Assembly (NCBI GenBank): GCA_041662525.1
Contig: JBAZSF010000002.1
Coordinates: forward strand, 3,121-67,120
Length of the DNA stretch: 64,000 bases
Direction: 5' to 3'
DNA from: Minisyncoccota bacterium
Lineage (GTDB): Bacteria; Patescibacteriota; Minisyncoccia; Phycocordibacterales; UBA9973
Shown: positions 5,884-60,929 of the stretch, in pieces
How the letters are laid out: each line of letters opens with the position of its first letter
How positions within the stretch are numbered: the first letter of the stretch is position 1
Notes under the pieces: model-generated
What the model saw: the letters and a program-made list of their open reading frames with translations, nothing else
Told to the model about the DNA's origin: nothing
Database searches by the model: none
Program-made: the position numbers and the translations under genes

Positions 5884-7097
5884 AATTAGTTGATATCACA
5901 AATGAAACATATAGTTCACTTTCTGCAAACAAAGCACGTTCAGGTCTTACAATGCTCGGTATAGTTATCGGTATTGCTTCTGTAATTGCCATGGTCTCTA
6001 TCGGGAATGGTGCAAAAGTATCTATCCAATCGAGCATAGAAGGTCTGGGCTCCAATCTTCTAACAATCATTCCCGGAATAGTTCAACCAGGACGCGGAAT
6101 CGTATCTTCTGGACGTGGCGCAGCTCAAACACTTAAAAATGAAGACATCGATGTTGTAAAATCAATAGATGGAGTGGGAGCTGTTTCCCCCGAAGTTTCG
6201 AGTAGATTTCAAGTAGTAGCAAGTGGAAATAATACCAATACTACTATAACGGGGGCTACGCCGGATTATGCAAATGTGCATAATATTGCAGTTGCAAACG
6301 GAAGCTTTATCTCTGGTGCAAATCAAAGAAGCATCGGCCGACAAGCGGTGCTCGGTGCGACAGTGGCGACAGATTTATTTCCCGATCAGGACCTCGAAAG
6401 TATTTTAGGTAAAACTATTCGAATCAATAAAGTTAATTTTAATATTATTGGGATTTTAGTGGCAAAAGGAGGCGCTGGATTTTCTGGTCCAGATGATATG
6501 ATCTTTGTCCCCCTTTCGACAATGCAAAAAATTCTTTCCGGATTTGATTATCTTTCCATGATGGTAGTTTCTGTCACAGACAAAAATAAAATGACAGAGG
6601 TAAAAGATTTGATAACTAATGCCCTGTTAGACAAACATCGCATAGAAGAAGCCGATTTTTCAATAATTTCTCAAGAAGATATTTTAGGCACCTTAACCAC
6701 CGTAATAGACACTTTTACACTTTTCCTTGCGGCTATCGCTTCTATATCACTCTTGGTCGGAGGTATAGGAATTATGAATATGATGCTCACGACCGTTACT
6801 GAACGTACAAAAGAAATTGGTTTACGAAAAGCTATTGGGGCAAAAAGAAGCGACATCAACACGCAATTTCTCTCGGAGGCTGTAGTGCTCACTTTTATTG
6901 GGGGTTTTATAGGAATTATTTTAGGATGGCTGATCTGCTTGATAGTAACGTCAACTGGACTTGTAAAAACTCAAGTCTCAATCTCTTCTGTTCTTTTAGC
7001 TTTTGGTGTATCAACAGTTATCGGTATTATCTTTGGATACTACCCTGCCCGCCGAGCAGGCATGCTCAATCCAATTGATGCGTTAAGGTATGAGTAA
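5880..7097 (+). CDS. ABC transporter permease (FtsX/MacB-type, with periplasmic MacB_PCD-like domain)
   Basis: Start overlaps ATPase stop (ATGA). N-terminal TM, large extracytoplasmic domain, three C-terminal TMs with 'GGIGIMNMMLTTVTERTKEIGLRKAIGA' FtsX motif. Confidence 0.85.
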   Translation: MKLVDITNETYSSLSANKARSGLTMLGIVIGIASVIAMVSIGNGAKVSIQSSIEGLGSNLLTIIPGIVQPGRGIVSSGRGAAQTLKNEDIDVVKSIDGVGAVSPEVSSRFQVVASGNNTNTTITGATPDYANVHNIAVANGSFISGANQRSIGRQAVLGATVATDLFPDQDLESILGKTIRINKVNFNIIGILVAKGGAGFSGPDDMIFVPLSTMQKILSGFDYLSMMVVSVTDKNKMTEVKDLITNALLDKHRIEEADFSIISQEDILGTLTTVIDTFTLFLAAIASISLLVGGIGIMNMMLTTVTERTKEIGLRKAIGAKRSDINTQFLSEAVVLTFIGGFIGIILGWLICLIVTSTGLVKTQVSISSVLLAFGVSTVIGIIFGYYPARRAGMLNPIDALRYE

Positions 7098-7098
7098 T

Positions 7099-7216
7099 TG
7101 TGAATTATGAAACATAACTTTTCGCGGGGTTTCGAGGCTGACGAGCCGAGAACTTCAGGATTTTTTAAGCTTCAAAAAATCTGTACCGAAGAAAAGTTTA
7201 TGTTTTGTAATTCAAA
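7099..7216 (+). mobile_element. MITE-like element sharing terminal inverted repeat TGTGAATTATGAAAC with element at 10189-10330; interior homologous (reverse complement) to 15236-15300
   Basis: 5' end 'tgtgaattatgaaac' right after macB stop; degenerate 3' end 'gttttgtaattca'. Internal 'gctgacgagccgag' shared with repeat family R1. Confidence 0.4.
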
Positions 7217-7217
7217 A

Positions 7218-7322
7218 TAAAAAAACCAAACAAATTATCTTTCTTTTTTCAGGTCCTCGGTTCTCCGGGTCCCTATCTCGGCCAGACCATGAAAAAATAA
7301 AATAATTTGTTTGGTTTTTTTT
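7218..7322 (+). repeat. 18-bp perfect inverted repeat (aaaaaccaaacaaattat / ataatttgtttggttttt) whose loop carries a copy of the GGTCTGGCCGGGATAGGGACCCGGAGAACCGAGGACC element (reverse orientation)
   Basis: Read directly; the loop element matches the in-frame inserts in ksgA (58276-58312) and pcrA (59694-59730). Confidence 0.5.
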
Positions 7323-8587
7323 TATTTTCTAATAGAATAATTACCAGTGGCTATCCATTTATAGGTAGTCATTTCTTTCGGACCCATGGGACCACGAGCG
7401 TGGATTTTAGAGGTGGAAATGCCAATCTCTGAGCCAAGTCCAAAGATAGCACCATCGGAGAATCTAGTAGAAGCATTTACGTAAACTACGGCCGCGTCTA
7501 CTTCATCTAAGAATTTCTGACAATTTTTTTTATCTTCCGAAAGAATTGCTTCAGAGTGTTTGGAAGAATATTTATTAATATGTTTTATTGCTTCATCCAC
7601 ATTAGAAATAATTTTTACGGACATTTTTTGACTTAAAAACTCTCGCCCAAAATCTTCTGCTCTTGCTTTTTTTAAAAGATTAACTGGATAACATTTTTTT
7701 AATATTTCAAAACTCCTTAAATCAGCAAAAATCTCTACTTCTTTTTGGATTAACAATTCAGAAACCATAGGAAGAAATTTTTCTGCTATTTCGCTGTGTA
7801 CTAATAGTGTATCTAAAGAATTACAAACACTTGGACGTTGTGTTTTGGCATTAAAAATAATTTTGGCGGATGCATCAAGTCTAGAAGAAACGTCCACAAA
7901 AGTATGACAAACTCCAGCGCCTGTTTCGATCACTGGTACTGTAGCGTTTTCTCTCACAAAATTTATCAAACTAGAGCTTCCTCTTGGGATAATTACATCC
8001 ACCAAACCATTGGCCGAAATAATATCTAAAACAGCATCTTTTATTTTTGGATCTATAAATTGAACAACTTCAGGATCCACCCCAGAAGACATTAGAACAT
8101 TTTTTATAATTTTATGAAGAATTATATAACTTTCTCTTGCCTCCTTCCCTCCTTTAAGTATCACCGAATTGCCAGACTTGATACAAATCGCAGATACATC
8201 CGTGGTCACATTGGGTCGTGATTCATAGATAACACCGATTAACCCTATTGGCACTCTCTTTTTGCAAATTTTTAATTCTTTATTTTCTTTACTATTTCGA
8301 CAATCAAAAACCTCACCAATTGGATCTGGCATATTTATCAAACTTTCTATTTCTTTAGCCATACTTTCAATACGTGCATCATTTAAAAGCATACGGTCAC
8401 GCATCGGATCACTTGGTGGAAGTTTTTTTAAATCTTTAGAATTCGCCATAATAATTAATTTTTTATTTTTACGCAATTCTTTGGCTAAATTTTTCAAAAT
8501 TAAAATTCTTTTAGCATGAGACAAAAGTCCGAATTTAAGAGATGCTACTTTTGCTTTATTTAATTGTTTTAATATGTTCTTATTCAT
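7322..8587 (-). CDS. proA: Gamma-glutamyl phosphate reductase
   Basis: Aldehyde dehydrogenase fold with ProA-typical 'VPIGLIGVIYESRPNVTTD' and 'SNVDEAIKHINKYSSKHSEAI'; last gene of the proB-proC-proA operon. Confidence 0.9.
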   Translation of the reverse strand: MNKNILKQLNKAKVASLKFGLLSHAKRILILKNLAKELRKNKKLIIMANSKDLKKLPPSDPMRDRMLLNDARIESMAKEIESLINMPDPIGEVFDCRNSKENKELKICKKRVPIGLIGVIYESRPNVTTDVSAICIKSGNSVILKGGKEARESYIILHKIIKNVLMSSGVDPEVVQFIDPKIKDAVLDIISANGLVDVIIPRGSSSLINFVRENATVPVIETGAGVCHTFVDVSSRLDASAKIIFNAKTQRPSVCNSLDTLLVHSEIAEKFLPMVSELLIQKEVEIFADLRSFEILKKCYPVNLLKKARAEDFGREFLSQKMSVKIISNVDEAIKHINKYSSKHSEAILSEDKKNCQKFLDEVDAAVVYVNASTRFSDGAIFGLGSEIGISTSKIHARGPMGPKEMTTYKWIATGNYSIRK

Positions 8588-9348
8588 TATTTATCCTGAC
8601 TTAATTCTTTTGCTCTTTTGTAGGAAGCTTTAACGGCTTTTGATACAATTCCTTTTAAATTTTCTTTTTGGAAAACATCGAGAGCTGCTTCTGTCGTCCC
8701 ACCCTTTGAAGCAACTTTTTTTACAAGGGAAGAATAATCATCTTCTTTTGCCAATAGAGCAGAAGCTAAAAAAGTATTTTCAACTAATTTTCTACTTTCA
8801 TTTTTGTTAAATCCTAAATCACCGCAAACCTGCATTAAACAATCCGCTAAAAGGAAAAAATACGCCGGACCACTGCCAGAGATGGCTGTTACTTTATTTA
8901 TAGTGTCTTCATTTTTAACTTCAAAATTTTCTGTGATTTTATTTATGAAATTTTTAGCTTTCTTTTTCTCTACTCCAGATATTCCTATTCCCTTCCAAGC
9001 AGCTATGCCATAACCCACAGAAAGTCCTAAATTTGGCATCATCCTGATAATTTTTTTGTGACCAGAAAGATGCACGAGTTCTTTGATTGATACACCAGCC
9101 ATAATTGAAATTATTATTGTTTTCTTGTTTAAATAATTTTTAATTTCCCCAATAGCTTCTTTTGATTCTTGGGGCTTTGTGGCTAAAATCAAAAAATCAG
9201 CTTCTTTTACTTTTTGAATGAAATTATTTATATTTGGTTTATCTTTATCAATACTAAAAACACTAATTTTAGGATCTTTTTTAGTAATTGTTTTAGTGAT
9301 AGCTTTACCCATCGTACCAAAACCAATAATTACAACTTTAGTTCTCAT
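8587..9348 (-). CDS. proC: Pyrroline-5-carboxylate reductase
   Basis: N-terminal Rossmann 'VVIIGFGTMGKAI', C-terminal 'SKGGTTEAALDV'; start/stop overlaps with proB and proA. Confidence 0.85.
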   Translation of the reverse strand: MRTKVVIIGFGTMGKAITKTITKKDPKISVFSIDKDKPNINNFIQKVKEADFLILATKPQESKEAIGEIKNYLNKKTIIISIMAGVSIKELVHLSGHKKIIRMMPNLGLSVGYGIAAWKGIGISGVEKKKAKNFINKITENFEVKNEDTINKVTAISGSGPAYFFLLADCLMQVCGDLGFNKNESRKLVENTFLASALLAKEDDYSSLVKKVASKGGTTEAALDVFQKENLKGIVSKAVKASYKRAKELSQDK

Positions 9349-10114
9349 AATGTTTTTGTTTTTTATTTTTAACTAAAAGTCTTGTACCTGAAAAATTCTT
9401 ACCTATAGCTTCTACTATCGTTCCTGGTTTTTCACCATTACCGATAAGTGTTTCTACTCCTCTTTTGGTTGCATATTCAGCAGAAGAAATTTTTGCGCAC
9501 ATCCCCCCCACCCCCAGCTCAGACTTCCCAACTGAGCACAATGCTTTTATCTTATCATCAACCTTTTCTACATTTTTTATTAATTTTGCATCTTTATTAT
9601 GATCAGGATTATCTGTAAAAACTCCGTTTTGATTAGTCAAAATCAAAAGCTTGTCCGCCTTTAATCCCACCGCCACCATTGCGCTCAACGTGTCGTTGTC
9701 ATTGACTCTCAAGTCTTCCCTCTTCATTACATCATTCTCATTTATAATTGGTAAAACTTTATGTGAAAGCATCGCTTCTATGTTTAAAACAAAATTCTTA
9801 AAATGTTCTTTATTCGTAAAATCATCACTTAATATCAAAATTTGACCAACAACAATTTTATATTTTTTAGCTACATTGATATAGTTATGCATTAACATGG
9901 GCTGTCCAACAGCCGCAGCCACTTTTTTTCGAAGTGGGCTTACAAAATTAACCAACGGTAATCCTGTGCCGATAGCACCAGAAGTCACCAAAATAACTTC
10001 ATGCCCGAGTTTTAAAAGCTCAGCAATTTCTTTGATGATTTGCCTGATTCGTCCTTTATTTAATCCATTTTTACCAGAAATTACTTGGGTACCTATCTTT
10101 ATTACTAAACGCAT
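9338..10114 (-). CDS. proB: Glutamate 5-kinase (short form without PUA domain)
   Basis: Strong match to ProB core: 'LVIKIGTQVISG', 'VILVTSGAIGTG', 'VGDNDTLSA', 'GTGGMCAKISSAEYA'; 258 aa so no PUA domain. Confidence 0.9.
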   Translation of the reverse strand: MRLVIKIGTQVISGKNGLNKGRIRQIIKEIAELLKLGHEVILVTSGAIGTGLPLVNFVSPLRKKVAAAVGQPMLMHNYINVAKKYKIVVGQILILSDDFTNKEHFKNFVLNIEAMLSHKVLPIINENDVMKREDLRVNDNDTLSAMVAVGLKADKLLILTNQNGVFTDNPDHNKDAKLIKNVEKVDDKIKALCSVGKSELGVGGMCAKISSAEYATKRGVETLIGNGEKPGTIVEAIGKNFSGTRLLVKNKKQKHYEN

Positions 10115-10188
10115 ATAAATACTCTAGCTCAATAATTTATTATCTGCAAATACGTAATAATGCTATACTAACTGAAATTTAAAATAAA

Positions 10189-10330
10189 CTGTGAATTATG
10201 AAACTTGTCGCAGGCGCAGTTTTCTGGAAGCATTGCGCAGGATGACGATCCGAGCATAGCAAAAAATCAGTAGATTTTTATGTGTGCTGACAGAAAACTT
10301 GTGCCAAGAAAGAGTTTCGTAATTCACAGT
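10189..10330 (+). mobile_element. MITE-like element, 142 bp, with 16-bp terminal inverted repeats CTGTGAATTATGAAAC / GTTTCGTAATTCACAG; interior is a diverged copy of repeat family R1
   Basis: TIRs read directly; internal 'ttgcgcaggatgacgatccgagcatagcaa' aligns with R1 'ttgcgcaggctgacgagccgagcagttcgctggcatagcaa'. Confidence 0.55.
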
Positions 10331-10341: not shown

Positions 10342-11022
10342 ATGGAAAATAAAACAGCCGAATCATACCCAATGCGGATAAATAAATATCTGGCTCTTAA
10401 AAAAATCTCCACTAGACGTGGAGCAGATCTTCTAGTAAAAGACAAAAAAGTCTTTATCAATAAAAAATTGGCAGTCCTCGGCAGTCAAGTAAATGAGACT
10501 GATGTAGTAGAAGTAAAAGGTGCAAAACCCGTAGAATATAAATATTTTGCCTACAATAAACCAATAGGAACCGAAACAGATTCTCCTAAAAAAGATCTCT
10601 TTCCTTTGGGAAGACTTGATAAAAATTCCCATGGACTTTTGATACTTACTAATGATGGGCGAATAACTGATCAACTCTTAAACCCAAAATATTTTCATGA
10701 AAAAGAATACGTCGTTCGCACCAAAGAAAAACTCCGCTCAAACTTCAAACAAAAAATGGAAGAAGGCGTAGATATTGAAGGATATAAAACAAAACCATGC
10801 AAAATAAAAATAATGAGTGAAAATACTTTCAAAGTAATTTTAACCGAAGGAAAAAAACATCAAATCCGCCGAATGTGCGCAAACCTTTTCCAAGAAGTCG
10901 CTGACCTGAAACGTGAAAGAATCATGAATATAAAATTAGGAAACTTAAAGCCAAAAGCTATAAGAGAAATAAAAGGCGAAGAATTAACTATTTTTCTAAA
11001 TCAAGTACTTCATCAATCCTAA
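10342..11022 (+). CDS. rRNA pseudouridine synthase, RsuA/RluB/RluF family (S4 domain + catalytic domain)
   Basis: 'MRINKYLALKKISTRRGADLLV' (S4), catalytic 'GRLDKNSHGLLILTNDG', 'HQIRRMCANL'. Start ambiguous (10342 or 10371). Confidence 0.8.
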   Translation: MENKTAESYPMRINKYLALKKISTRRGADLLVKDKKVFINKKLAVLGSQVNETDVVEVKGAKPVEYKYFAYNKPIGTETDSPKKDLFPLGRLDKNSHGLLILTNDGRITDQLLNPKYFHEKEYVVRTKEKLRSNFKQKMEEGVDIEGYKTKPCKIKIMSENTFKVILTEGKKHQIRRMCANLFQEVADLKRERIMNIKLGNLKPKAIREIKGEELTIFLNQVLHQS

Positions 11023-12869: not shown

Positions 12870-12882
12870 TATCTAATCATAA

Positions 12883-12915
12883 CAAAAAGCCCCCAAATAT
12901 GGGGGCTTTTTGTTT
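12883..12915. terminator. Bidirectional intrinsic terminator (gcccccaaatatgggggc hairpin flanked by A-run and T-run)
   Basis: Between convergent csp (+) and thioredoxin-like (-) genes. Confidence 0.7.
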
Positions 12916-12921
12916 TTTATT

Positions 12922-13200: not shown

Positions 13201-13227
13201 AAAAATGAAAGAAATTTTATTTGTTAT

Positions 13228-13300
13228 TTAGAAAGCCTTGCGACCAGCTCTCGAGCCGAGCAGTTCGCTGGCATAGCAATGCCAGATAGATTGCTTTATA
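13228..13300 (+). repeat. Repeat family R1 copy (…GCCTTGCG-CCAGCTCTCGAGCCGAGCAGTTCGCTGGCATAGCAATGCCAGATAGATTGCTTTATA)
   Basis: Near-identical to copies at 15110-15205 and 43467-43556; contains hairpins ctggcat-agca-atgccag and gcaat-gccagatag-attgc. Confidence 0.6.
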
Positions 13301-13318
13301 AATAGCAAATCAAATTTC

Positions 13319-14232: not shown

Positions 14233-15096
14233 ATGCCTGAGCTTCCAGAAGTTGAAACAACCACAAGGGGCCTAAGAAAAACGGTAGTAGGTCTCACAAT
14301 AAAAAATGTCTGGACTGATTTAGCAACAAAAGATAAACGCAAGACAGACAGTGTGGCCAATCCTAAATTTTTCAAAATTTTCAAGAAAGAAATTCTAAAT
14401 AAAAAAATTATATCAGTAGAAAGGCGTGCAAAAAATATTCTCATAAATCTTTCTGGCAAAAAAGAAACACAGCAAACTATTCTTATTCATCTAAAAATGA
14501 CCGGCTATTTATTTTATGGCAAAGATCCAGAAATTAAATTCGCACATGTAATTTTTACTTTAAGTAATAGTTATTATTTAATTTTTTCGGATATGCGTAA
14601 ATTCGGAAAGATAACTCTACTGGATACTAAAATTGCGCACGACAGTAAGCATTTAAATAATATCGGACCGGAACCACTTGATAAAAATTTCACTTTACCT
14701 AAATTAAAAGAACGTTTAAATAAAAAACCTACAGGTAAAATAAAAACCGTTTTAATGAATCAGGGAATCATAGCTGGTATTGGTAATATTTACTCGGATG
14801 AAATCCTCTGGCATGCTAACGTGCATCCAGAGAGAAAAGTTTCTACACTAAAAAATTCAGAAATTAAATTAATATTTAAAGCAATAAAAGAAACTCTCAA
14901 AAAAGGTATTGATTTCGGTGGAGATTCAATGTCAGATTATAAAAATATTTATGGCTTGCCTGGTAAATTCCAACTACACCATGAAGCATATAGACGCACT
15001 GGAGAAAAATGCAGAAAAAAAAATTGTAAAGGTATAATAATAAGAAAAGTTATAAATAGCCGCAGCGCACACTTTTGTGATACTCATCAAAAATAA
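14233..15096 (+). CDS. mutM: Formamidopyrimidine-DNA glycosylase (Fpg/Nei family)
   Basis: N-terminal 'MPELPEVE', H2TH region, C-terminal zinc finger 'CRKKNCKGIIIRKVINSRSAHFCDTHQ'. Confidence 0.9.
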   Translation: MPELPEVETTTRGLRKTVVGLTIKNVWTDLATKDKRKTDSVANPKFFKIFKKEILNKKIISVERRAKNILINLSGKKETQQTILIHLKMTGYLFYGKDPEIKFAHVIFTLSNSYYLIFSDMRKFGKITLLDTKIAHDSKHLNNIGPEPLDKNFTLPKLKERLNKKPTGKIKTVLMNQGIIAGIGNIYSDEILWHANVHPERKVSTLKNSEIKLIFKAIKETLKKGIDFGGDSMSDYKNIYGLPGKFQLHHEAYRRTGEKCRKKNCKGIIIRKVINSRSAHFCDTHQK

Positions 15097-15109
15097 GAGA
15101 ATATAAAAT

Positions 15110-15205
15110 TTAGAAAGCCTTGCGCAGGCTGACGAGCCGAGCAGTTCGCTGGCATAGCAATGCCAGATAGATTGCTTTATAGATTTTGATATTTTCTTAT
15201 TTTTG
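15110..15205 (+). repeat. Repeat family R1 copy (full: TTAGAAAGCCTTGCGCAGGCTGACGAGCCGAGCAGTTCGCTGGCATAGCAATGCCAGATAGATTGCTTTATAGATTTTGATATTTTC)
   Basis: Almost base-for-base identical to 43467-43556. Confidence 0.6.
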
Positions 15206-15235
15206 AATTCTAAAATTATAGAATCAAAATTTTTG

Positions 15236-15300
15236 TCGGTACAGATTTTTTGAAGCTTAAAAAATCCTGAAGTTTGCTCGCCGTCGCTCGCAAAACCCCT
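15236..15300 (+). repeat. Repeat homologous (reverse complement) to interior of MITE-like element at 7114-7200
   Basis: 'cggtacagattttttgaagcttaaaaaatcctgaagtt' is the exact reverse complement of 7151-7188. Confidence 0.5.
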
Positions 15301-15313
15301 TAAAAACTTTATT

Positions 15314-20910: not shown

Positions 20911-23142
20911 CTATTTCTTTTCTATGCGGATTCTCAAAACCCCAATCTCATCTCTCAAGATCGCCGCAGTTTCAAAGTCTAATTCTTTTACTGCTTTGTT
21001 CATTTCACGCTCTTTCATTTTTATTATTTTTTCGTAAATTAAATTACCAATCTCTTCATCTGATAAATAAGACTGTCCCAAACTAGTATTCGGTATTTTT
21101 CTATTAATCTTTTTGTCTTTTTTAAATTCTTTAGCATAAGCCCTCTTAAAAACTTCTAAATCAAGTTTGAGTTCTGCGTTCACCACCTTTCCATGCTCAC
21201 TCTCCATTTCTTCGGTAATATCTTTTATCTTTTTTATAATTGTTTTCGGAGTGATGCCATGCTTTTTATTATAAGAAAGTTGAATATTTCTTCGTCGTGT
21301 TGTTTCTCCCAATGCTTTCTCCATAGCATCTGTCATAACGTCCGCATATAGAATTACTTTCCCCTCACTATTGCGAGCCGCACGTCCAATAGTTTGAATT
21401 AAAGATGTTTCGGATCGCAAAAATCCAGCTTTATCAGCATCCAAAATTCCAATCAAAGCAACTTCTGGTAGATCAAGCCCTTCGCGCAACAGATTAACTC
21501 CAACCAAAACATCAAATTCTCCCTTTCGAAACTGTGTTAAAATTTTAATTCTCTCCATTGTTTTTATATCGCTATGTAAATATTCTGCTTTAATTTTTTT
21601 ATCTTTTAAGTAATTCGAAAGATCTTCTGCCATCTTTTTCGTCAGAGTCGTCGCTAAAACACGAAAACCTTTTGCAATTGTTTTTTCTGCTTCTGATATA
21701 AAATCTTGAATTTGGCCGGGGTAGTGCTGAGGATGATGCCCAGAGGAGTATTCGCTACGAACAGAACTTTCTTGCCCTTCCAAGATAAAGTGCGAACGAC
21801 GGCGGGCATCATCCTCAGCACTACTTTCCGAAACAGGCCTAACTATTGTTTCAGGATCTACTAATCCTGTGGGACGGATGATTTGTTCTACAATTTGTTC
21901 ACTTTCCTTTCTTTCCACATCACTTGGTGTCGCGCTTGTGTAAATTACTGGACCAATGCGTTCCTGAAATTCATTGTATTTAAGCGGTCTATTGTCTTTA
22001 GCTGAAGGTAAACGAAAACCATATTCCACAAGAGTATTTTTGCGAGAAGCGTCACCAGCATACATTCCATTTAATTGAGGAAGGGTTACATGCGATTCAT
22101 CAATAATAGTTAAAAATCCTGATTTCGGAAAGTAAGACAATAATGTCTCTGGCGGTTCACCTTCTTTCTTCCCTGATAAATGCCTAGAATAATTTTCTAT
22201 ACCATTACAATATCCGACTTCTTTTATCATTGCGAGATCGTAATTCGTTCTTCTTTTTATGCGCTCCGCTTCTAAAAGTTTTCCTTCCTTTTCAAATTTC
22301 TTTAGTTGTTGGGTCAATTCTTTTTTAATTTCCACAAGCGCTTTTTTCTTCTTTACATCTTCGGTAATAAAATGCTTCGCTGGAAAAATAAAAATACCTG
22401 CCCGTCCTTTGGCGGGTTTTATTTCTTCAATTATTTGTGAAGAAATTGGATCTATCTTTGTTATCTTTTCTATCTTTGAACCGTCAAGTTCTATTTGATA
22501 TGTAATCGTTTCCGAAACTGGCATAAATTCTACCCGCGTGCCAATAGAACGAAAAGTTCCAGGATTGAGATCTGCATTAGTGCGTTCAAAATGAATTTCA
22601 ATTAATTTTTTCATTAAAGTGAGGCGATCCATTTTCATCCCAATCTCGAGTTTTAAATTAACTTTTTCGTATTCTTCCGGAGAACCTAAACCATAAATAC
22701 AAGAAACTGAAGCAACTATTATCACATCACGCCTTGTTAGGAGCGCCTGCGTGGAAGCATGACGAAGCATATCTATTTCTTTATTAATAGAAGCATCTTT
22801 TTCAATATAAGTATCCGAAGCGGGCATATAGGCTTCCGGCTGATAATAATCATAATAAGAAACAAAATAATGCACCGCGGAATCCGGAAAAAATAACCGA
22901 AACTCTTGAGCGAGTTGAGCAGCTAAAGTTTTATTATGAGCTATTACTAAGGTTGGTTTGTTGTACTGTGCGATAACATTCGCCATAGTAAAAGTCTTAC
23001 CGGTACCTGTGGCTCCGAGCAATGTTTGCTTTTTCATTCCCCTTTCTAAGCCCTGCACAAGTGCGGAAATAGCCGCTGGTTGGTCTCCTGCAGGCTGGAA
23101 AGGATTATGCAATTTAAAGATACTTCCTTGATTTTTCGACAT
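20911..23142 (-). CDS. uvrB: Excinuclease ABC subunit B, carrying an in-frame ~40-aa palindromic-repeat insertion
   Basis: Helicase motifs 'GATGTGKTFTMANVI', 'DESHVT', C-terminal UVR domain. Extra 'VSESSAEDDARRRSHFILEGQESSVRSEYSSGHHPQHYPG' sits between conserved 'VRP' and 'QIQDFI'. Confidence 0.95.
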   Translation of the reverse strand: MSKNQGSIFKLHNPFQPAGDQPAAISALVQGLERGMKKQTLLGATGTGKTFTMANVIAQYNKPTLVIAHNKTLAAQLAQEFRLFFPDSAVHYFVSYYDYYQPEAYMPASDTYIEKDASINKEIDMLRHASTQALLTRRDVIIVASVSCIYGLGSPEEYEKVNLKLEIGMKMDRLTLMKKLIEIHFERTNADLNPGTFRSIGTRVEFMPVSETITYQIELDGSKIEKITKIDPISSQIIEEIKPAKGRAGIFIFPAKHFITEDVKKKKALVEIKKELTQQLKKFEKEGKLLEAERIKRRTNYDLAMIKEVGYCNGIENYSRHLSGKKEGEPPETLLSYFPKSGFLTIIDESHVTLPQLNGMYAGDASRKNTLVEYGFRLPSAKDNRPLKYNEFQERIGPVIYTSATPSDVERKESEQIVEQIIRPTGLVDPETIVRPVSESSAEDDARRRSHFILEGQESSVRSEYSSGHHPQHYPGQIQDFISEAEKTIAKGFRVLATTLTKKMAEDLSNYLKDKKIKAEYLHSDIKTMERIKILTQFRKGEFDVLVGVNLLREGLDLPEVALIGILDADKAGFLRSETSLIQTIGRAARNSEGKVILYADVMTDAMEKALGETTRRRNIQLSYNKKHGITPKTIIKKIKDITEEMESEHGKVVNAELKLDLEVFKRAYAKEFKKDKKINRKIPNTSLGQSYLSDEEIGNLIYEKIIKMKEREMNKAVKELDFETAAILRDEIGVLRIRIEKK
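21713..21838. repeat. Palindromic element inserted in-frame in uvrB (21-bp perfect inverted repeat GGTAGTGCTGAGGATGATGCCC / GGGCATCATCCTCAGCACTAC flanking ~60 bp)
   Basis: Inverted repeats at 21720-21741 and 21804-21824 read directly; maps to the non-conserved insert in the UvrB protein. Confidence 0.6.
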
Positions 23143-38704: not shown

Positions 38705-39802
38705 TCATCTATTCATGGGCATGATAAGATAAGTAAAAGATGAATCAGAAATAGGAGAAATAACTATTGGCTTAGATGCTCCAGATAATTTTACAGAAAC
38801 ACTATCAGTATTAATTGATTGAAAACAATCTAAAAAATATTTATAATTAAAACTTAGTTCAACAATTTCTCCTTTAAGAACAGCATCTAAATATGTTTTA
38901 TTTTCTCCAATATCATTATTGGCAGAAGAAAGTTCAAAAATTTTTTCTTTAGGTGAAATCTTTAGATTAACTTGATTGAATTTATCTGAAAAAACATTAG
39001 AAAGTTTTAAAGCATTTAATAAATCTTGTTTGAGTACCACCACATCAGTCAAAGAATCTTTTGGAATGATTTGCCTATAGTCTGGAAAAATACCATCAAT
39101 AATTCTTGAAGTTAAATAAACATTATCGGAAGAAAAAGAAATTTGATTTTTATTAAAACAAACCTTTATAGTACCTTTAAATTCTCCGAAGACTTTCAAT
39201 ATTTCTCCTATGTTTTTATATGGGATAAGAATTCCCAGAATCTCCTCGAGTCCTTTTACTTTAACTTTTTTTTCAGCCAACCTAAACGAATCTGTAGAAA
39301 CAAAAATTAAATTATCCTCATTGGTATACATAAAAACACTTGAAATTTCAGGTTTAATGTCTGAAATGGAAGAACTATAGTAAACCGCTTTTATTCCATC
39401 AATTAATTTATTTGATTCTATTTCAAAACTACTACCAACAACTTTTGGTATTGTTGGGAAATCTTCGTGGGGCTGACTTTTAAGTTTTATTTGGCTTTTT
39501 TTTGTTTTAATTAATAAGTTTCCGTCTGTGTTTTCAAAAAATATATTTTCATTTTGTGAAACATTAGAAAAAACAGCATTTAATATTGATCCAGAAACAG
39601 CAAGGGATCCTTCTTTTTCCACCTTGGCTGGAATTTCAATTTCAATTCCAAGATTTAAATTTGTAGATCTAAGTTTTAATGAGTTATTGGAAGTAATTAA
39701 TAATATTGAACTTAATATTGGTAAAGTTAAATTCTTACCAGTAATTCTTTCTACTTGAGAAATAGCATTTTTTATTTTCTCCACAGAGCATTCTAGTTTC
39801 AT
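38705..39802 (-). CDS. dnaN: DNA polymerase III beta sliding clamp
   Basis: Three-domain clamp, N-terminal 'MKLECSVEKIKNAISQVERI…LPILSSILL', C-terminal 'IMPMNR'. Confidence 0.9.
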   Translation of the reverse strand: MKLECSVEKIKNAISQVERITGKNLTLPILSSILLITSNNSLKLRSTNLNLGIEIEIPAKVEKEGSLAVSGSILNAVFSNVSQNENIFFENTDGNLLIKTKKSQIKLKSQPHEDFPTIPKVVGSSFEIESNKLIDGIKAVYYSSSISDIKPEISSVFMYTNEDNLIFVSTDSFRLAEKKVKVKGLEEILGILIPYKNIGEILKVFGEFKGTIKVCFNKNQISFSSDNVYLTSRIIDGIFPDYRQIIPKDSLTDVVVLKQDLLNALKLSNVFSDKFNQVNLKISPKEKIFELSSANNDIGENKTYLDAVLKGEIVELSFNYKYFLDCFQSINTDSVSVKLSGASKPIVISPISDSSFTYLIMPMNR

Positions 39803-39947
39803 ATGTTTATATATTATATATTTAAATTATTAATAATATTAGGTGTGTTGATAAGTGTATAAGTATTTTTTATATTGGTAAACATTATTGTTTTACTGAA
39901 TTTATTTTTTAATTTAAGTCTGATAACTTTCTAATAACTATTTTTAA
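39803..39947. promoter_or_regulatory. AT-rich dnaA-dnaN intergenic region with DnaA-box-like TGTTGATAA (candidate DUE / second oriC module)
   Basis: 'gtgttgataagtgtataag' and >80% A+T content. Confidence 0.4.
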
Positions 39948-41285
39948 TTATTTAAACATAATCCTTATTTGTTCTAATTCTTGGATTAATTGTGGATCAT
40001 TTTTTAAATCTTCTTTGATTTTTACACATGAATGCATGACTGTTGTATGGTCTTTTCCACCTAATTTTTGTCCTATGAGTGGATAAGAAACACTAAAATC
40101 TTCTCGAAGTAAATACATAATAATTTGTCTGGTTTTTACTATTTCCTTTTTTCTAGTTTTTTCATAAATAGACATTTCTTCTAATTTATAATATTCAGCT
40201 ACAACTTTTACAACATCTTTTATAGCCATATTCTTTTTTGGTTTCATGTTGTTTTTTAGTAGATTTTTAACTTCTATGAGCGAGGGGGCCTTATTTTTTA
40301 AGCGATATTGGCAAATAATAAGATTTAAGCTTCCTTCAAGCTCACGAATATTTCCTTGGATGGAAGAAGCAACATAATCAATTACATCCTCTTCTAAGGT
40401 TATATTGAGTTCACGAAGCCTTACCTTAATAATTGCGAGACGAGACTCGTATTCTGGCTCAGTGACGTCTACAATCATTCCTGCAGCAAAACGAGACTTT
40501 AAACGATCTGCTAGTTCTGGAATATAATTAGGGTGTTTATCGGAAGAAAAAATAATTTGTTTATTGTTTTCATAAAAAGTATTAAATGTATGAAAAAGTT
40601 CTTCTTGAATTTTTTCCATTTTACCAATGAATTGGATATCATCTATGATCAAAAGATCATATTTACGATATTTTTCTTTAAAAGAATTTGCTTTATTCCC
40701 CTGGAGGGAGTTTATAAAATCTGTTGCAAACTTTTCCAAGGTCATATAGTGCACCTTTTTTTCAGGATGTTTATTTTTTATTGAATTTCCTACAGCTTGA
40801 ATCAAGTGAGTTTTTCCGAGACCAGTGCCACCATAAATAAAAAATGGATTATATTTAGTTCCAGGTGATTCTATTATTGCTTGGGAAGCCGCATAAGCGA
40901 GTTCGTTGAAGGCCCCGACAATAAAAGAATTAAAATGGTAACGTGGATTTAGATTATTCTCTGGATTTATATATAAATCCTTTAAAGGTAATTCTTTTTC
41001 TATGGTTTCACTTATTATTGTTTCTTGTTTAGAATTTTCTATTTTTGTAATTACATATTCTACCGCACGCATATTTTCATAATTTTCGGCTATGGTTTTG
41101 GTTATGAGTTTATGGTATTTATTTATAAGCCAATCACGAACAAATTCATTTGGTACTCCTACATACACAATCCCATTTTCCTCTTTTGCGATAGATGTAT
41201 TTTTAAACCATGTACTAAAATTGGCTTTAGACATGTCAGATTCAATTTTTAGTAAACAGTTTTTCCACAATTGGTTTGTGTTCAT
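39948..41285 (-). CDS. dnaA: Chromosomal replication initiator DnaA
   Basis: AAA+ 'GGTGLGKTHLIQAVG', 'LLIIDDIQF', C-terminal DNA-binding 'YPLIGQKLGGKDHTTVMHS'. Confidence 0.95.
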   Translation of the reverse strand: MNTNQLWKNCLLKIESDMSKANFSTWFKNTSIAKEENGIVYVGVPNEFVRDWLINKYHKLITKTIAENYENMRAVEYVITKIENSKQETIISETIEKELPLKDLYINPENNLNPRYHFNSFIVGAFNELAYAASQAIIESPGTKYNPFFIYGGTGLGKTHLIQAVGNSIKNKHPEKKVHYMTLEKFATDFINSLQGNKANSFKEKYRKYDLLIIDDIQFIGKMEKIQEELFHTFNTFYENNKQIIFSSDKHPNYIPELADRLKSRFAAGMIVDVTEPEYESRLAIIKVRLRELNITLEEDVIDYVASSIQGNIRELEGSLNLIICQYRLKNKAPSLIEVKNLLKNNMKPKKNMAIKDVVKVVAEYYKLEEMSIYEKTRKKEIVKTRQIIMYLLREDFSVSYPLIGQKLGGKDHTTVMHSCVKIKEDLKNDPQLIQELEQIRIMFK

Positions 41286-41436: not shown

Positions 41437-41439
41437 ATT

Positions 41440-41574: not shown

Positions 41575-41586
41575 CTTGGTTTAAAT

Positions 41587-42181: not shown

Positions 42182-42234
42182 TCCCGTTGTTTGATTTTCT
42201 AGCGTTTTTTTGCTTTTTCATATAGAATGAGGTA

Positions 42235-42960: not shown

Positions 42961-42961
42961 T

Positions 42962-43447
42962 ATGGAGAAAGAAGAAATCCAAAATTTAATAAAAGAATTA
43001 ATTGAAAAAACCACAGTAAAATTAAATAAAATTTCAATTATTGATGATAAACCTAAAAATATATGGGTTTCTGTGGAAGTTAGTGAACCACATTTTTTTA
43101 TTGGGCGTGAAGGTGAAGGTTTGCATGCATTGAGTTATCTTGTTCACAGAATCATAGAATCAAAAAATCCTCGCAATGATGTAAAGACAACGGAACCACA
43201 AGGATTAGGTGTTATTATAGATATAAATGGTTTTCAAAAAAAACATGTTGAGAGTATTCGCGCAATAGCTCATATGATGTCAGAAAGAGCGAGATATTTT
43301 AAGTCTAATATTGAAATTGATCCAATGTCTGCATTTGAGCGTAGGATCGTGCATGAATTTTTGTCTGAAGCAAATGATTTAAAAACTGAGTCTGTGGGCT
43401 TTGGGCGTGATCGCCGAGTGGTGATTAAATATATTGGGGTTATGTAA
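42962..43447 (+). CDS. jag: Jag/KhpB-like RNA-binding protein (KH + R3H domains)
   Basis: R3H 'FERRIVHEFLSE…GFGRDRRVVIKY'; conserved position after yidC. Confidence 0.85.
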   Translation: MEKEEIQNLIKELIEKTTVKLNKISIIDDKPKNIWVSVEVSEPHFFIGREGEGLHALSYLVHRIIESKNPRNDVKTTEPQGLGVIIDINGFQKKHVESIRAIAHMMSERARYFKSNIEIDPMSAFERRIVHEFLSEANDLKTESVGFGRDRRVVIKYIGVM

Positions 43448-43466
43448 GAAAAAGAAAATATAAAGT

Positions 43467-43556
43467 TTAGAAAGCCTTGCGCAGGCTGACGAGCCGAGCA
43501 GTTCGCTGGCATAGCAATGCCAGATAGATTGCTTTATAAATTTTGATATTTTCTTT
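43467..43556 (+). repeat. Repeat family R1 copy
   Basis: Identical core to 15110-15205. Confidence 0.6.
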
Positions 43557-43560
43557 TTCT

Positions 43561-44952
43561 TTATTTTAAAGCGAGCTCCCAAAGAAAAGAATCTTTTTTA
43601 TTCACAAAAAATAAATAGTCCTCACTACTATCTAATGCAAGTTTGATACTATCGACGTCTTCCCCACCTAGAGCGACAGGGTCTGCAATCATTGTTGTAT
43701 TTCCAGTTTTAATATCTATTTTCCAAATTCGATCTCTAAAAAAAGTTTCTCCTTGATACCAGCTATCCGGATATTGGCCGTTAGGAATAGTGGTTGGTAC
43801 TCCACAATAAACAACATCATTAGTTTTATTCCAAACACATTTTTCCGCCAATGTTCTCACCCCCAACGTATTGGAAACTTTTGTATCTGTATGATAAATA
43901 TTAAGTGATAAGGTGTCATTGCTATAAAGAACCAGTTTCCCATTAGGACTAGTGAGAGTAGTAAGCCCATTTACAGCACCTAATATTTTGTGAAAATTAT
44001 AGTTTTTATTATTTGGGTCCATAGCGTACATATATCCAGGGATTCCAAATGAAGGTTTGGTGGTGAAAGTAATCATTTTATTATTTGGAAATAAGGACAA
44101 CCATTCAGTGAAAGGTGAATCAAAAACCTGAACTTTTTTATTATTTAATAAATTAAGTGTTGTACCAATTATGTTGTCTCCTAAATTATTTCCCAAATTA
44201 TTCCCACTGCTAAACATATAAAAAATACTATTAGAATCACTTGATAGACTTAAATCTTTTATGTTTTCCGGGAGGAACACCCCTTTTATTTCATTACTAC
44301 TCGTGGTGTCTGCGCCAAGAAATTCTTTTGGTAAAGTACCGACAAAAGTTATAATCGTTTTAGCATCTGATTTTAAATATCGCATAATTACAGAATTCCC
44401 TTTGTTTCCAAAAAATGCTTCATAAACCTTTGGTATTATTGTGGTAGAAAATTTCTTTTCTTCTATTTTGTCTACAAAGGTTTGATATATATTTCCTGTA
44501 GCTCTTTCTATATATCTTAAAGCTGGCATAAATTCTGTTGGAGGTGGAGTTGGCTTGGTTGTTTTTGTAGTAGTTGTTGTCTTTGGAGGAATTATTAAAC
44601 CTGTTGCTGGATCAATTTCTGGCGCTACCACAGGGATTTCTTTCAATCTTTCTTTGGAAAATACGGTAAAACCCGCGATAGGCATGCTCGAAACCTTTTT
44701 TAATTTTATGTTTGTCTCTGGTGTTGTAGAAATTTGTCCATCTCCAGAGATATCCACTGGGGGTGTGGTATTCGTGGGGGGCTTTGTTGAATTATTTCCA
44801 AATGGATTAAATTGTGAAATAAAATTTGTACCCGTGCTGTCTTCTCCTGGTGTATTTGTATTTGTTCCTGGATTGAAATAAAAATATCCAAATAATGTAC
44901 TTATTCCGATGACGATGATTATTATTAAAAGTATAAAATTTCTTTTTGACAT
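43561..44952 (-). CDS. Hypothetical secreted protein: N-terminal anchor, Pro/Thr-rich linker, beta-rich C-terminal domain
   Basis: 'ILLIIIIVIGISTLFGYFYF' then 'TTTTKTTKPTPPPTE' linker; first gene (3' end) of the T4SS-like minus-strand cluster. Confidence 0.5.
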   Translation of the reverse strand: MSKRNFILLIIIIVIGISTLFGYFYFNPGTNTNTPGEDSTGTNFISQFNPFGNNSTKPPTNTTPPVDISGDGQISTTPETNIKLKKVSSMPIAGFTVFSKERLKEIPVVAPEIDPATGLIIPPKTTTTTKTTKPTPPPTEFMPALRYIERATGNIYQTFVDKIEEKKFSTTIIPKVYEAFFGNKGNSVIMRYLKSDAKTIITFVGTLPKEFLGADTTSSNEIKGVFLPENIKDLSLSSDSNSIFYMFSSGNNLGNNLGDNIIGTTLNLLNNKKVQVFDSPFTEWLSLFPNNKMITFTTKPSFGIPGYMYAMDPNNKNYNFHKILGAVNGLTTLTSPNGKLVLYSNDTLSLNIYHTDTKVSNTLGVRTLAEKCVWNKTNDVVYCGVPTTIPNGQYPDSWYQGETFFRDRIWKIDIKTGNTTMIADPVALGGEDVDSIKLALDSSEDYLFFVNKKDSFLWELALK

Positions 44953-44955
44953 AAA

Positions 44956-45972: not shown

Positions 45973-45979
45973 TTTTTAC

Positions 45980-58670: not shown

Positions 58671-60929
58671 TTATAAGTAAATTGTTTTTATTCCACTCTC
58701 CTCGCCTTCCTTTTCTAATAAATCTGCTGGAATATCTGTAATAAATTCTGATGGGGCATTGATATTGCGAGATCCAAAAATAGTACGGAAATTCGCAAAG
58801 GATAAGAATAACTTTCTTCGAGCACGAGTGAGCGCTACATAAAAAAGCCTTCTCTCTTCCTCACTATCTTCATTCACCTTACTCTCTCCTTGTCTTTGAT
58901 GCGGGAAAAGTCCATCTTCTAACCCTGTGATAAAAACATAATCAAATTCAAGACCTTTTGAGGCATGCACCGTCATTAATTTTACCCCAGTTTTCTCTTT
59001 CTTTTTTTCTTCGTTAATCATTAAACTATCTTGATCTGAGGCGAGAGACGCATCTTCTAAAAGCTTTTCTACGCCTCCCCCGTCTGCTAGGTTGTCATAT
59101 TTGAGCGCTAGGGTGGCGAGTTCTTTGATGTTTTCTAACCTTTCCATATCTTCCTCAGTGCCATTTTGTAATTCCTGTTCTATTCCAGATTTTTTTACTA
59201 CAAATTTTATTACCTCACTCGTTTTTGAGTTGTTTATTTTTTCTTTTATTTCTTCCAGTGTTTTATAAAAATTATCAATTTTTATTTGTGTTTTTATTGG
59301 TAGAGTTTCTTTTTGGTTAGCAAAAATTTTCATCAAAGTTACTTTTCCAATGCCTCTTGCAGGGAAATTCATGATTCTTTTTATGTCAGATAAACTATCT
59401 GGATTTAAAGCTGCCCGTAAATATGCGAGAGTGTCTTTAATTTCTTTTCTTTCAAAAAATTTAACTCCTAGAACTTGATAAGGAATATTGTATCTCAGCA
59501 TTGCTTCTTCGAGTGCTCTCGATTGGAAATTGGCTCGGTAAAGTATTGAGATGCTGGATAAAACATTCTCGGACTCACCACGAAAAAATTCTCCCGAAAA
59601 TTCTTCCTGCTCCGCGTCGCCACTCCTCCCAAGGGTTCGCTCGAGAACATATTTTCCAGCATCTTGAGCTCTGCCGGATGCGCTTTTTTGGATGGTCTGG
59701 CCGGGATAGGGACCCGGAGAACCGAGGACCTCCGAAAAAGCGTCTCCGGCGGAGCTGTCTAGTATCTCCAGAATTTTTGTCGCAACAAATTCAGCTTCGT
59801 CGGTTTCGTCTAGGGCTTCGTAAAGACTTATCTTTTCACCTTCAATATTTTTTGTAAATAAATTTTTATCTGGTCTATATTTATTTTTCTTGATTACTTC
59901 ATTGGCTGCTTCTAAGATATTTTTAGTAGAGCGATAATTTTGTTCCAATAAAATGATTTTTGTATTTGGATAATCTTTTTCGAAATTTAAAATATTTTTT
60001 AAATTTGCTCCACGCCAAGAATAAATATTTTGATCTGCATCCCCCACCACGCAAATATTTTTATTTCTTTCAGAAAGTAATTTAGACATCAAATATTGCA
60101 CTTCATTTGTGTCTTGATATTCATCGACGTGTATATATTCCCATTTTTCTTGATAAATTTTTCTAATTTCTGCGTTTTCTTTTAGTAATTTTGTAGCTTT
60201 CAAAAGTAGGTCATCAAAGTCTAAAGAATTTTCTTTCATCTTTTGCTTCTCATACAAATTCCAAACTTGCGCTACTATTTTACCTAAAGAACTTCCTCCG
60301 CCTTCTTCCCTTTCCATATAATCTGCCAAATGCACAAATTTTCCTTTTTCTCGTGAGATTATATTTTTTATTTTTTTTGGATCATATTGTTTTGGGTCTA
60401 CACCGATTTCTTTCAAGATATTTTTAATAAGAGTATTCGCATCTCCTTCATCTAAAATAGTAAAATATCTCGTGAGTCCGAGTAGTCGGGCATTTTCTTT
60501 TATGATATAAACTCCAAGAGAATGGAAAGTAGAAACAAAAGGAACTTCGGACAAAATATTCTCGGACTCACCACGAAAATTTTCTGCTGAAAATTTTCTC
60601 TGTCCGTCGCCGTCGCTCCTACCAAGGGTTCGCTCGAGAACATATTGCCCTCCATTTTTACTATTCGAAAAAGCATTGCCGATGAAGCTGTCTTTTATTG
60701 CGAAATTAATGCGCTCCCGCATTTCTTTGGCAGCTTTGTTGGTGAAGGTTACCGCTAAGATTTTATCTGGGGACACTCCATTTTTTATAAGATTCACAAT
60801 TCGATGCGTGATTGTTTTTGTTTTTCCAGCTCCTGCTCCGGCAATAATCAAAAGCGGTCCCTTCATATGGAGCGCCGCTTCTTTTTGTTCACTATTTAGA
60901 CCTTTTAGATGTTTTTCGTCTTTATCCAC
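58671..60929 (-). CDS. pcrA: ATP-dependent DNA helicase PcrA/UvrD (SF1) carrying repeat insertions at two sites
   Basis: 'LIIAGAGAGKTKTITHRI', 'VDEYQDTN', 'TFHSLG', 'VHASKGLEFD'; non-conserved segments 'YVLERTLGRSDGDGQRKFSAENFRGESENILS' and 'GSPGPYPGQT…YVLERTLGRSGDAEQEEFSGEFFRGESENVLS'. Confidence 0.9.
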   Translation of the reverse strand: MDKDEKHLKGLNSEQKEAALHMKGPLLIIAGAGAGKTKTITHRIVNLIKNGVSPDKILAVTFTNKAAKEMRERINFAIKDSFIGNAFSNSKNGGQYVLERTLGRSDGDGQRKFSAENFRGESENILSEVPFVSTFHSLGVYIIKENARLLGLTRYFTILDEGDANTLIKNILKEIGVDPKQYDPKKIKNIISREKGKFVHLADYMEREEGGGSSLGKIVAQVWNLYEKQKMKENSLDFDDLLLKATKLLKENAEIRKIYQEKWEYIHVDEYQDTNEVQYLMSKLLSERNKNICVVGDADQNIYSWRGANLKNILNFEKDYPNTKIILLEQNYRSTKNILEAANEVIKKNKYRPDKNLFTKNIEGEKISLYEALDETDEAEFVATKILEILDSSAGDAFSEVLGSPGPYPGQTIQKSASGRAQDAGKYVLERTLGRSGDAEQEEFSGEFFRGESENVLSSISILYRANFQSRALEEAMLRYNIPYQVLGVKFFERKEIKDTLAYLRAALNPDSLSDIKRIMNFPARGIGKVTLMKIFANQKETLPIKTQIKIDNFYKTLEEIKEKINNSKTSEVIKFVVKKSGIEQELQNGTEEDMERLENIKELATLALKYDNLADGGGVEKLLEDASLASDQDSLMINEEKKKEKTGVKLMTVHASKGLEFDYVFITGLEDGLFPHQRQGESKVNEDSEEERRLFYVALTRARRKLFLSFANFRTIFGSRNINAPSEFITDIPADLLEKEGEESGIKTIYL
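59561..59655. repeat. Repeat family R4 copy in-frame in pcrA (encodes YVLERTLGRS…RGESEN)
   Basis: Imperfect terminal inverted repeat aacattctcgga… / …gttcgctcgagaacatat; second copy at 60553-60657. Confidence 0.6.
59694..59730. repeat. GGTCTGGCCGGGATAGGGACCCGGAGAACCGAGGACC element in-frame in pcrA, adjacent to R4 copy
   Basis: Read directly. Confidence 0.6.
60553..60657. repeat. Repeat family R4 copy in-frame in pcrA (second site)
   Basis: ~80% identical to 59561-59655 at nucleotide level; same encoded peptide motif. Confidence 0.6.

Follow-up and report, generated by a model that had tools for sequence, protein, structure and literature searches.

A proB-type amino-acid kinase gene (9338-10114, minus strand) and an rluF-type gene (10342-11022, plus strand) diverge from a spacer that holds a palindromic element of 141 nt. 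Homologues of the rluF product carry the name 23S rRNA pseudouridine2604 synthase. Read in the direction of rluF, the spacer consists of the box TGcTATACT, 19 nt, the element, 12 nt and the ATG. The box, a putative extended -10 promoter element, is conserved in the related loci L116, L117 and L119 (TGaTATACT, TGcTATAAT and TGaTATAAT). Since the element begins 19 nt downstream from this -10 box, it falls inside the 5′ leader of rluF. Coordinates of all features are given in Table 1.

The window, that is, the whole stretch of 64,000 nucleotides that was analysed, belongs to a Candidatus Paceibacterota bacterium (Patescibacteria/CPR; G+C content about 34%) and contains housekeeping genes, including dnaA, dnaN, rnpA and yidC. 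Its RluF and KsgA show 100% identity to proteins assigned to Candidatus Paceibacterota. The interval from 38705 to 43447 harbors dnaN and dnaA on the minus strand and rnpA, yidD, yidC and a jag/R3H gene on the plus strand; the replication origin probably lies in the 41286-41586 spacer, where GC skew shows no sharp switch. A minus-strand cluster at 43561-56616, coding for a T4SS pilin/NlpC-P60 protein, a TraG/VirB4-like ATPase, a PrgI-like protein and also containing numerous ORFs that match no Pfam family, is a type-IV-secretion-like or conjugation-like island. Two perfect GC-cored hairpins with A- and T-run flanks (1825-1868 and 12879-12916) are bidirectional intrinsic terminators, distinct from the repeat families. 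In a related locus (L066, 2203-4401), a XerC/D-type tyrosine recombinase is split by an intein with a LAGLIDADG endonuclease domain and is 732 residues long, against about 325 in its orthologues.

A first-pass annotation had described a MITE-like element at 10189-10330, bounded by 16-bp inverted repeats that were exact reverse complements and devoid of coding capacity. The terminal repeats are present, but their complementarity is 15 out of 16, the sole mismatch being a U.G wobble on the plus strand. The right arm ends at 10329, one base earlier than proposed; A10188 and T10330 add one further pair to the palindrome. The absence of coding capacity was confirmed: only chance ORFs, none of plausible size, overlap 10189-10329.

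The element is organized in three layers. These are the 16-nt tips, a subterminal shell made of paired segments around an asymmetric internal loop, and a three-way junction formed by hairpin P4, within a 22-nt core, and hairpin P5, which has an AG(C/U)A loop. Together, the tip (C-T-K-TGAATTAYGAAAC) and the shell make up imperfect terminal inverted repeats of about 35 bp. In the core of this copy, GCGCAGGATGACGATCCGAGCA, an A-U compensatory variant replaces the usual C-G pair.

The 16-nt arm by itself is weak evidence, as a search for its pattern with up to 3 mismatches gave 3 matches against 1.36 expected; the whole 141 nt is far beyond chance. The predicted RNA fold has a free energy of -64.6 kcal/mol (z = -9.6), with none of 200 shuffled sequences equally stable, and the DNA fold has a z of -8.1. 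Rfam 15 yields no match overlapping 10189-10329 even at E <= 10, and in the whole window only a tRNA-Lys reaches the gathering score; overlaps seen on other copies involve plant MIR families at E values of 1.7 to 9, far below threshold and due to chance. We also considered a hammerhead or other self-cleaving ribozyme, as CTGACGAG resembles the CUGAUGA core. This candidate was discarded: the motif lies in a hairpin apex, has no GAAA/stem II partner and finds no Rfam match.

Table 1. Features of the rluF leader element and of its relatives in the window (CM, covariance model R1)
Feature	Position	Strand	Remarks
rluF-type pseudouridine synthase gene	10342..11022	+	Pfam S4 and PseudoU_synth_2; ATG 12 nt past the element
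Putative extended -10 promoter element of rluF, TGcTATACT	10161..10169	+	19 nt upstream of the element
Probable MITE of 141 nt, long form, type-A interior	10189..10329	+	Single long hairpin fold; L116 and L117 lack it in their orthologous proB<>rluF spacer
Left terminal inverted repeat, CTGTGAATTATGAAAC	10189..10204	+	Terminus C-T-K-TGAATTAYGAAAC also present at 24 further, distinct sites
Right terminal inverted repeat, GTTTCGTAATTCACAG	10314..10329	+	15/16 complementary to left arm, one U.G
Left subterminal shell (TTGTCGCAGGCGCAG...)	10205..10234	+	Conserved columns and asymmetric internal loop in alignment A2
Conserved unpaired block GTCGCA, left shell	10207-10212	+	
22-nt core GCGCAGGATGACGATCCGAGCA: hairpin P4, GACG loop, GCA/GA internal loop	10235..10256	+	
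Three-way-junction module (P3, P4, P5 with AGYA loop)	10219..10310	+	CM 82.9 bits, E = 9e-22
P5 hairpin and right subterminal shell	10257..10313	+	
Conserved unpaired block AAGAAA, right shell	10306-10311	+	
Second TIR-bearing copy, TTGTGAATTATGAAAC ... GTTTTGTAATTCAAAA, different interior	7098..7217	+	CM 7116-7209, 43.4 bits
Copy with 7098-type interior, different arms, degenerate P4	15200..15335	-	Inverted match to 7116-7225; CM 15216-15307, 32.6 bits
Short-form type-B copy overlapping fpg stop codon	15089..15209	+	CM 15106-15197, 82.0 bits
Short-form type-B copy, 93% identical to 15089-15209, compensatory arm differences	43446..43566	+	CM 43463-43554, 82.9 bits
Older type-B copy, mutated P4	13208..13328	+	CM 13224-13316, 54.3 bits; upstream of rpsT
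Diverged family member translated inside UvrD	60548..60639	-	CM 25.9 bits, E = 7.5e-5; ORF intact; direct repeat D3

The orthologous spacer was found empty in two relatives. In L116, which is syntenic (proA-proC-proB<>rluF) and encodes an RluF 91% identical to that of the window, TGaTATACT is followed by 13 nt and the ATG; in L117 (RluF 90% identical), 34 nt separate the -10 box from the ATG. The window leader thus has 141-147 extra nt relative to these loci. As L116 and L117 lack the 141 bp including the terminal repeats, the whole element is an insertion. A third relative, L119 (RluF 91% identical), carries a copy from another subfamily, with other arms, directly after the -10 box and about 20 nt from the window site. 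This spacer is an insertion hot spot. With the insertion, an rluF mRNA that was almost leaderless would begin with a highly stable hairpin of 141 nt, and this leader is predicted to affect rluF expression.

Termini, target duplications and interiors

A covariance model (R1) built from 113 relatives finds seven matches in the 64-kb window, a density close to one copy per 9 kb. Four occurrences of the motif GGNTGACGANCCGAG were counted in the window, always on the plus strand, where 0.15 would be expected. The copy at 7098 abuts the TAA stop codon (7095-7097) of a MacB/FtsX permease gene. The first-pass annotation had recognized the terminus directly 3′ of this stop codon, placing its start at 7099 instead of 7098. 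It had also reported the interior of this copy to be reverse-complement-identical over about 38 bp to 15236-15300. The identity holds (39 of 39 positions, 7151-7189), with the matched segment ending at 15274 and not extending through 15300.

The search for the terminal repeat in metagenomes identified C-T-K-TGAATTAYGAAAC at 24 other distinct insertion sites. A scan with a pattern combining the tip and the adjacent shell, TGAATTAYGAAACTYGTYGCAGG, returned 42 metagenome loci; the matching right end, GTTTCGTAATTCA, is present, and the flanks differ. We set element boundaries three bases outside TGAATTA...TAATTCA, which corresponds to the 16-nt repeat of the first-pass annotation. Among 24 oriented elements with distinct flanks, six are bordered by perfect 7-bp target duplications (shuffled mean 0.30, maximum 3 in 5000 shuffles) and a further three by perfect 6-bp duplications (shuffled mean 0.17); flanks matching at 6 or more positions out of 7 are found in ten (shuffled mean 1.07, maximum 5). 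Heptamers that are duplicated are rich in A and T (TATATTA, TATGATA, TAGTTTA, TATAATA, TAATTTA) and often resemble -10 boxes. The signal is confined to the conserved TIR tip: over all long forms, no target duplication was found at the end of the variable outer stem. About 88 of 116 core-bearing copies lack this TIR and have unrelated arms; among copies of this kind, an exact 7-nt duplication occurs in 5 of 119.

The copy at 10189 does not itself display a clean duplication. The A-runs on either side, proposed as candidates in the first-pass annotation, match at 6 of 8 positions in low-complexity sequence (AAAATAAA and GAAAAAAA), and the heptamers that abut the element, AAATAAA and TGAAAAA, match at 4 of 7; the score is likewise 4 of 7 for the 7098 copy. 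The 10189 copy could have been acquired by recombination from another allele, not by transposition. Derivation of its arms from the target by inverted duplication was rejected, the arms being unrelated to the flanks and recurring in other genomes.

Four loci (L130, L133, L136 and L157) carry near-identical copies of 133-139 nt in four different contexts, which indicates recent activity; the samples with near-identical copies include Ga0210057, Ga0210019 and Ga0210050. This subfamily retains an intact TIR and shell around a diverged core (GCGCAGGCGAACACGCAAGCA), an argument for movement depending on the ends and not on the junction. Overall, the same TIR and subterminal shell enclose at least four different interiors, including the canonical core, diverged cores and the 7098/15200-type interior, in line with the earlier suggestion that these elements recombine modules. 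A similar pattern is seen upstream from rpsT (S20). At this site, the window and L116 share a type-B copy, L117 and L118 have the same arms with a type-A interior and a small nested hairpin, and L119 has an unrelated palindrome. Thus, interiors are exchanged while arms stay. In L117 (3748-3877) and in L118, the P4 loop is the exact site at which the small AT-rich hairpin AGAAAATAAAAATGGTATTCCATTTATTATTTTCT is nested, an example of apex insertion. Conserved TIRs, 6-7-bp duplications above chance, presence/absence polymorphism and near-identical copies with different flanks support, at the family level, the proposal of a nonautonomous transposable family.

The cognate transposase that the first-pass annotation suggested looking for was found neither in the window nor in 1.28 Mb of related loci. 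Genes for a transposase, an integrase or a HUH protein are absent from the window, from the vicinity of the copies and from the intervals between inverted termini. A combined TIR and target duplication scan of the 1.28 Mb revealed no full-length IS with these termini, and no Y1_Tnp domain was found in any protein scanned. Recurrent neighbor genes were considered as sources of the mobilising enzyme and dismissed: their clusters are housekeeping genes at orthologous sites, and the largest of these merely reflects translation of the element. Inverted TIR tips bracket a single gene, an mltG/YceG-like one (L129, 731-1751), the left tip being bare and the right one joined to half a shell; the bracket could reflect a rearrangement between two elements or gene capture.

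Family distribution and copies within genes

The core 22-mer was used in an exact search in which its two covarying positions were left free. This matched more than 115 genome loci; among the matches listed, all but two chance ones are in Patescibacteria, the hosts being Nomurabacteria, Zambryskibacteria, Paceibacterota, Minisyncoccia and MAGs labelled Saccharibacteria. The search of IMG/VR returned no match to the core, leading us to reject a phage vector for the family. The near-invariant family 22-mer is GCGCAGGNTGACGANCCGAGCA, with conserved GACG and AGCA loops, and its free positions covary (C-G, A-T, T-A and G-C). In related loci totalling 0.6 Mb, the covariance model scores 109 matches. 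Patescibacteria are the only hosts of the family, whose interior is a phylum-wide structured module. In the literature searched, neither MITEs nor palindromic elements were found to be described for CPR bacteria, and the family, which is large, is apparently undescribed.

By a strict pattern, 28 of the 116 distinct copies are long forms with the shell; in the remaining copies, unrelated arms bear the junction. Either P5 type, A or B, can be found with the long as well as the short form, in free combination. In an alignment of 35 long-form copies (A2), 95.9% of cells are paired, a proportion that drops to 77.5% after column shuffling and to 32-51% after sliding of the partners. Compensatory changes affect 28 of 40 pairs, the covariation score is 0.512 versus 0.155, and a strand-specific G.U is conserved. 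Copy orientation is independent of the neighboring genes (<< 32, >> 22, >< 17, <> 14). Some copies are kept at orthologous sites, between NYN and rpsO, in nine genomes. In L058 (900-6250), five copies lie within 8 kb, occupying nearly every spacer between ssb, efp, recA and ftsK, and two copies have 130-nt spans, suggesting nested insertions.

Copies are also found inside long open ORFs (21 of 116, about 18%), in the sense orientation in 13 cases and antisense in 8; the genes concerned include TsaD, Fmt, KsgA and UvrD. In TsaD, the element occupies one loop in four genomes and the ORF is intact. The translated insert in TsaD or Fmt reads, for example, ...IAQADEPSIANFQQK.... The UvrD protein of the window (752 aa; gene at 58671-60929, minus strand) carries two diverged family copies (59556-59665, sibling of the one in Table 1, and 60549-60658), which are 80% identical and encode ...YVLERTLGRS..FRGESEN.., in addition to a palindrome from a second family with the core GGTCTGGCCGGGATAGGGACCCGGAGAACCGAGGACC. 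The three inserts make this UvrD about 60-100 aa longer than its relatives (693 aa in L123).

The second family is represented at 58245-58345 in KsgA, at 59665-59760 in UvrD and, in the opposite orientation, at 7214-7326 between genes. Two of its copies are translated in frame (...SGPRFSGSLSRPDHSKN...), and each copy has its own long arms. The KsgA protein of the window, which contains this family, has 317 aa; its homologues vary in length between 256 and 363 aa, and at three sites both filled and empty alleles occur, also among close relatives. At the first site, the insert adds 22 aa (66 nt) whereas the palindrome spans about 95 nt; therefore, the outer arms lie over codons that are native to the gene. 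The window, L123 and L124 each have different outer arms, and yet each pair is self-complementary. The pattern suggests hairpin-templated conversion, and extension of a palindrome into native codons does seem to occur at this second-family insert. A third KsgA insertion (57865-57946, residues ~229-255; TSPQPSPYKREGGNGTVQNK..., containing a small GC-rich hairpin of the CCCTCTCC...GGAGAGGG type) is present or absent among homologues, and a fourth small insert, GKGSNPSTPLRV, is also polymorphic. In the empty KsgA allele of L121 (~1640-1670), which has the sequence ACGAATTACGAATTACGAAAA, GAATTAC is repeated in tandem; the repeat resembles the MITE tip GAATTACGAAAC and may be a coincidence or a footprint.

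Palindromes were observed at other sites as well. Within uvrB (20911-23142, minus strand), a 114-nt palindrome at 21717-21830 has near-perfect arms of 25 nt and a DNA fold z of -7.1. A part of its interior, GCGAACGACGGCGGGC, resembles the degenerate P4 of the 15200-type copy, and this palindrome is probably a further in-frame family member missed by the model. Another palindromic family, CCCGTTAGAAGC...GCTTCTAACGGG, is found at the rnpA/yidD junction (41911-41982) and in L119 (4400-4480). In L119, it lies at a site that in the window is occupied by the first family; thus, unrelated palindromes colonise the same sites.

Intron-like removal of the inserts from mRNA was examined and rejected. The apparently split UvrD of L043, L047 and L070 is explained by the downstream ORF being KsgA. 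TsaD is broken in L025 only, where it lacks about 40 essential residues besides and is probably a misassembly or a pseudogene.

Nature and maintenance of the element

Bacterial MITEs, such as Correia/NEMIS of Neisseria and RUP of Streptococcus pneumoniae, are non-coding elements of 100-160 bp with terminal inverted repeats and AT-rich targets. The Patescibacteria family resembles them in size, in being non-coding, in having terminal inverted repeats, target-site duplications and AT-rich targets, and in its many intergenic copies by promoters or gene ends, which form long hairpins when transcribed; subfamilies arising through internal rearrangement are a further likeness. Like MITEs in general, it is made of non-coding units below ~500 bp with conserved TIRs, filled and empty sites and dispersed copies, some of them near-identical. 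Bacterial MITEs are covered by a review (PMC10969869). Unlike Correia/NEMIS and RUP, to which it has no sequence similarity, the family makes a duplication of 6-7 bp and not TA, has a conserved, covarying three-way-junction interior and has relatives that frequently lie in frame within genes. A cognate IS is not known for it, none having appeared in the window, beside the copies or in the 1.28-Mb scan.

Rickettsia palindromic elements (RPEs), reportedly found by Ogata and coworkers in 2000 between genes and in frame inside housekeeping genes, are similar in other ways. They too are palindromic repeats of ~100-150 bp in the reduced, AT-rich genome of a host-dependent bacterium, with intergenic and in-frame copies at permissive protein loops, in either orientation, and with no known transposase. 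At the family level, the Patescibacteria repeats also lie within ORFs without breaking the frame. Unlike RPEs, the subfamily studied here has clear TIRs and target duplications, and the 10189 copy itself is intergenic; sequence and lineage are called unrelated, the hosts being from unrelated phyla in which homology is not expected. REP/REPIN sequences (RAYT, IS200/IS605-like) share hairpin repeats, covarying arms, vertical persistence and a presumed single-stranded folded substrate. However, REPINs are strictly extragenic, have a GTAG-type tetranucleotide, produce no target duplication and go with a RAYT gene. None of this applies to the Patescibacteria family, which has copies inside genes and target duplications and for which no Y1_Tnp was found. 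Finally, the GC-rich palindromic or double-hairpin elements of AT-rich organelle genomes, such as Volvox and Allomyces mtDNA (a topic of PMC2670323), resemble the family in having G+C-rich hairpin cores in an AT-rich genome and in having spread into intergenic DNA and genes with the enzyme not identified; these elements are organellar, sequence-unrelated and without a TIR/target duplication architecture. The element belongs to the MITE/RPE-like kind, with unusual structural conservation and an RPE-like intragenic habit.

In our interpretation, the 10189-10329 segment is probably a MITE moved in trans by an enzyme making 6-7-bp staggered cuts at TA-rich targets. Such an enzyme would cut heptamers like TATAATA, TATATTA and TATGATA, and this target choice would account for copies piling up at -10 boxes and stop codons. 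Two processes would best account for the long, covarying hairpin and for interiors being swapped among copies, namely selection for the folding of one strand, and gene conversion or template switching between and within copies. Near-complete pairing, compensatory changes and the strand-specific G.U are more than a classical DDE MITE needs, and count against this interpretation. The same holds for the lack of a clean duplication at 10189, for the failure to find a transposase or full-length IS in the window, beside copies or in the 1.28 Mb, and for the core-bearing copies that have no such TIR. The strong covariation would suit an RPE/REPIN-like selfish hairpin, whose folded single strand would be copied by a chromosomal, possibly domesticated, structure-specific enzyme recognising the three-way junction; the TIR would then be merely the outermost part of the stem. 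Pointing in the same direction are the core 22-mer, near-invariant at positions not fixed by the search pattern and borne on many unrelated arms, the greater stability of the sense strand in 106 of 116 copies, the occurrence of 21 of 116 copies within open ORFs in both orientations, the arms that reach native codons and stay self-complementary while differing between orthologues, and the failure to find a transposase. We nonetheless regard this alternative as unlikely: the recently active L130/L133/L136/L157 copies keep the TIR and shell around a diverged core (GCGCAGGCGAACACGCAAGCA), the 6-7-bp duplications abut the conserved tips, as is the signature of staggered-cut integration, and G.U counts in the copy-specific outer arms are symmetric between strands. 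Strand-specific RNA selection was rejected along the same lines; the sense strand is indeed the more stable in 106 of 116 copies, but outer-arm G.U pairs are symmetric and orientation is independent of the genes.

The sense orientation of the element between the rluF promoter and the ATG, together with its very stable fold and G.U pairs on the sense strand, could also be taken as the mark of a functional structured RNA, be it a cis-acting rluF 5′ leader, a small RNA gene or a multi-copy RNA family. Compensatory changes in 28 of 40 pairs, conserved loops and the retention of copies at the NYN/rpsO sites of nine genomes would be in keeping with such a role. We find it quite improbable, however, since the element is missing from the rluF leader of relatives with a 90-91% identical RluF, orientation does not follow the neighboring genes, copies lie within coding sequences in both orientations, target-site duplications exist and Rfam has no match even at E <= 10. 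An ordinary intrinsic terminator or a chance inverted repeat has practically no standing. The window does contain simple terminator hairpins (1825-1868 and 12879-12916), but the present element sits between divergent genes, where no terminator is needed, and has no T-run after the stem; the z of -9.6, the model E value of 9e-22, hundreds of homologous copies and the empty sites argue against chance.

A separate proposal concerns the interior of the probable MITE. The three-way-junction module, folded as ssDNA or as RNA, might serve as a structure-specific ligand of a chromosomal Patescibacteria protein that would spread or maintain any hairpin bearing the module. We hold this to be doubtful. 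If true, hairpin-templated conversion would lengthen the arms and keep them complementary, even where they cover codons of essential genes, and palindromes would propagate independently of a transposase, which would explain RPE-type in-frame insertions.

The genomes of Patescibacteria are among the smallest and most streamlined in bacteria, and the usual description of them is that they hold little mobile DNA. The family described here inserts at promoters and at stop codons, and TsaD, Fmt, KsgA and UvrD contain translated copies; part of the large variation in length among housekeeping proteins (e.g., KsgA, 256-363 aa) is due to it. It bears on gene calling and assembly of CPR MAGs and offers a marker with which insertion polymorphism can be followed at the strain level. 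Besides the Rickettsia RPEs, which raised the question of how palindromic repeats colonise coding genes, there is now a second and independent lineage in which to study it.
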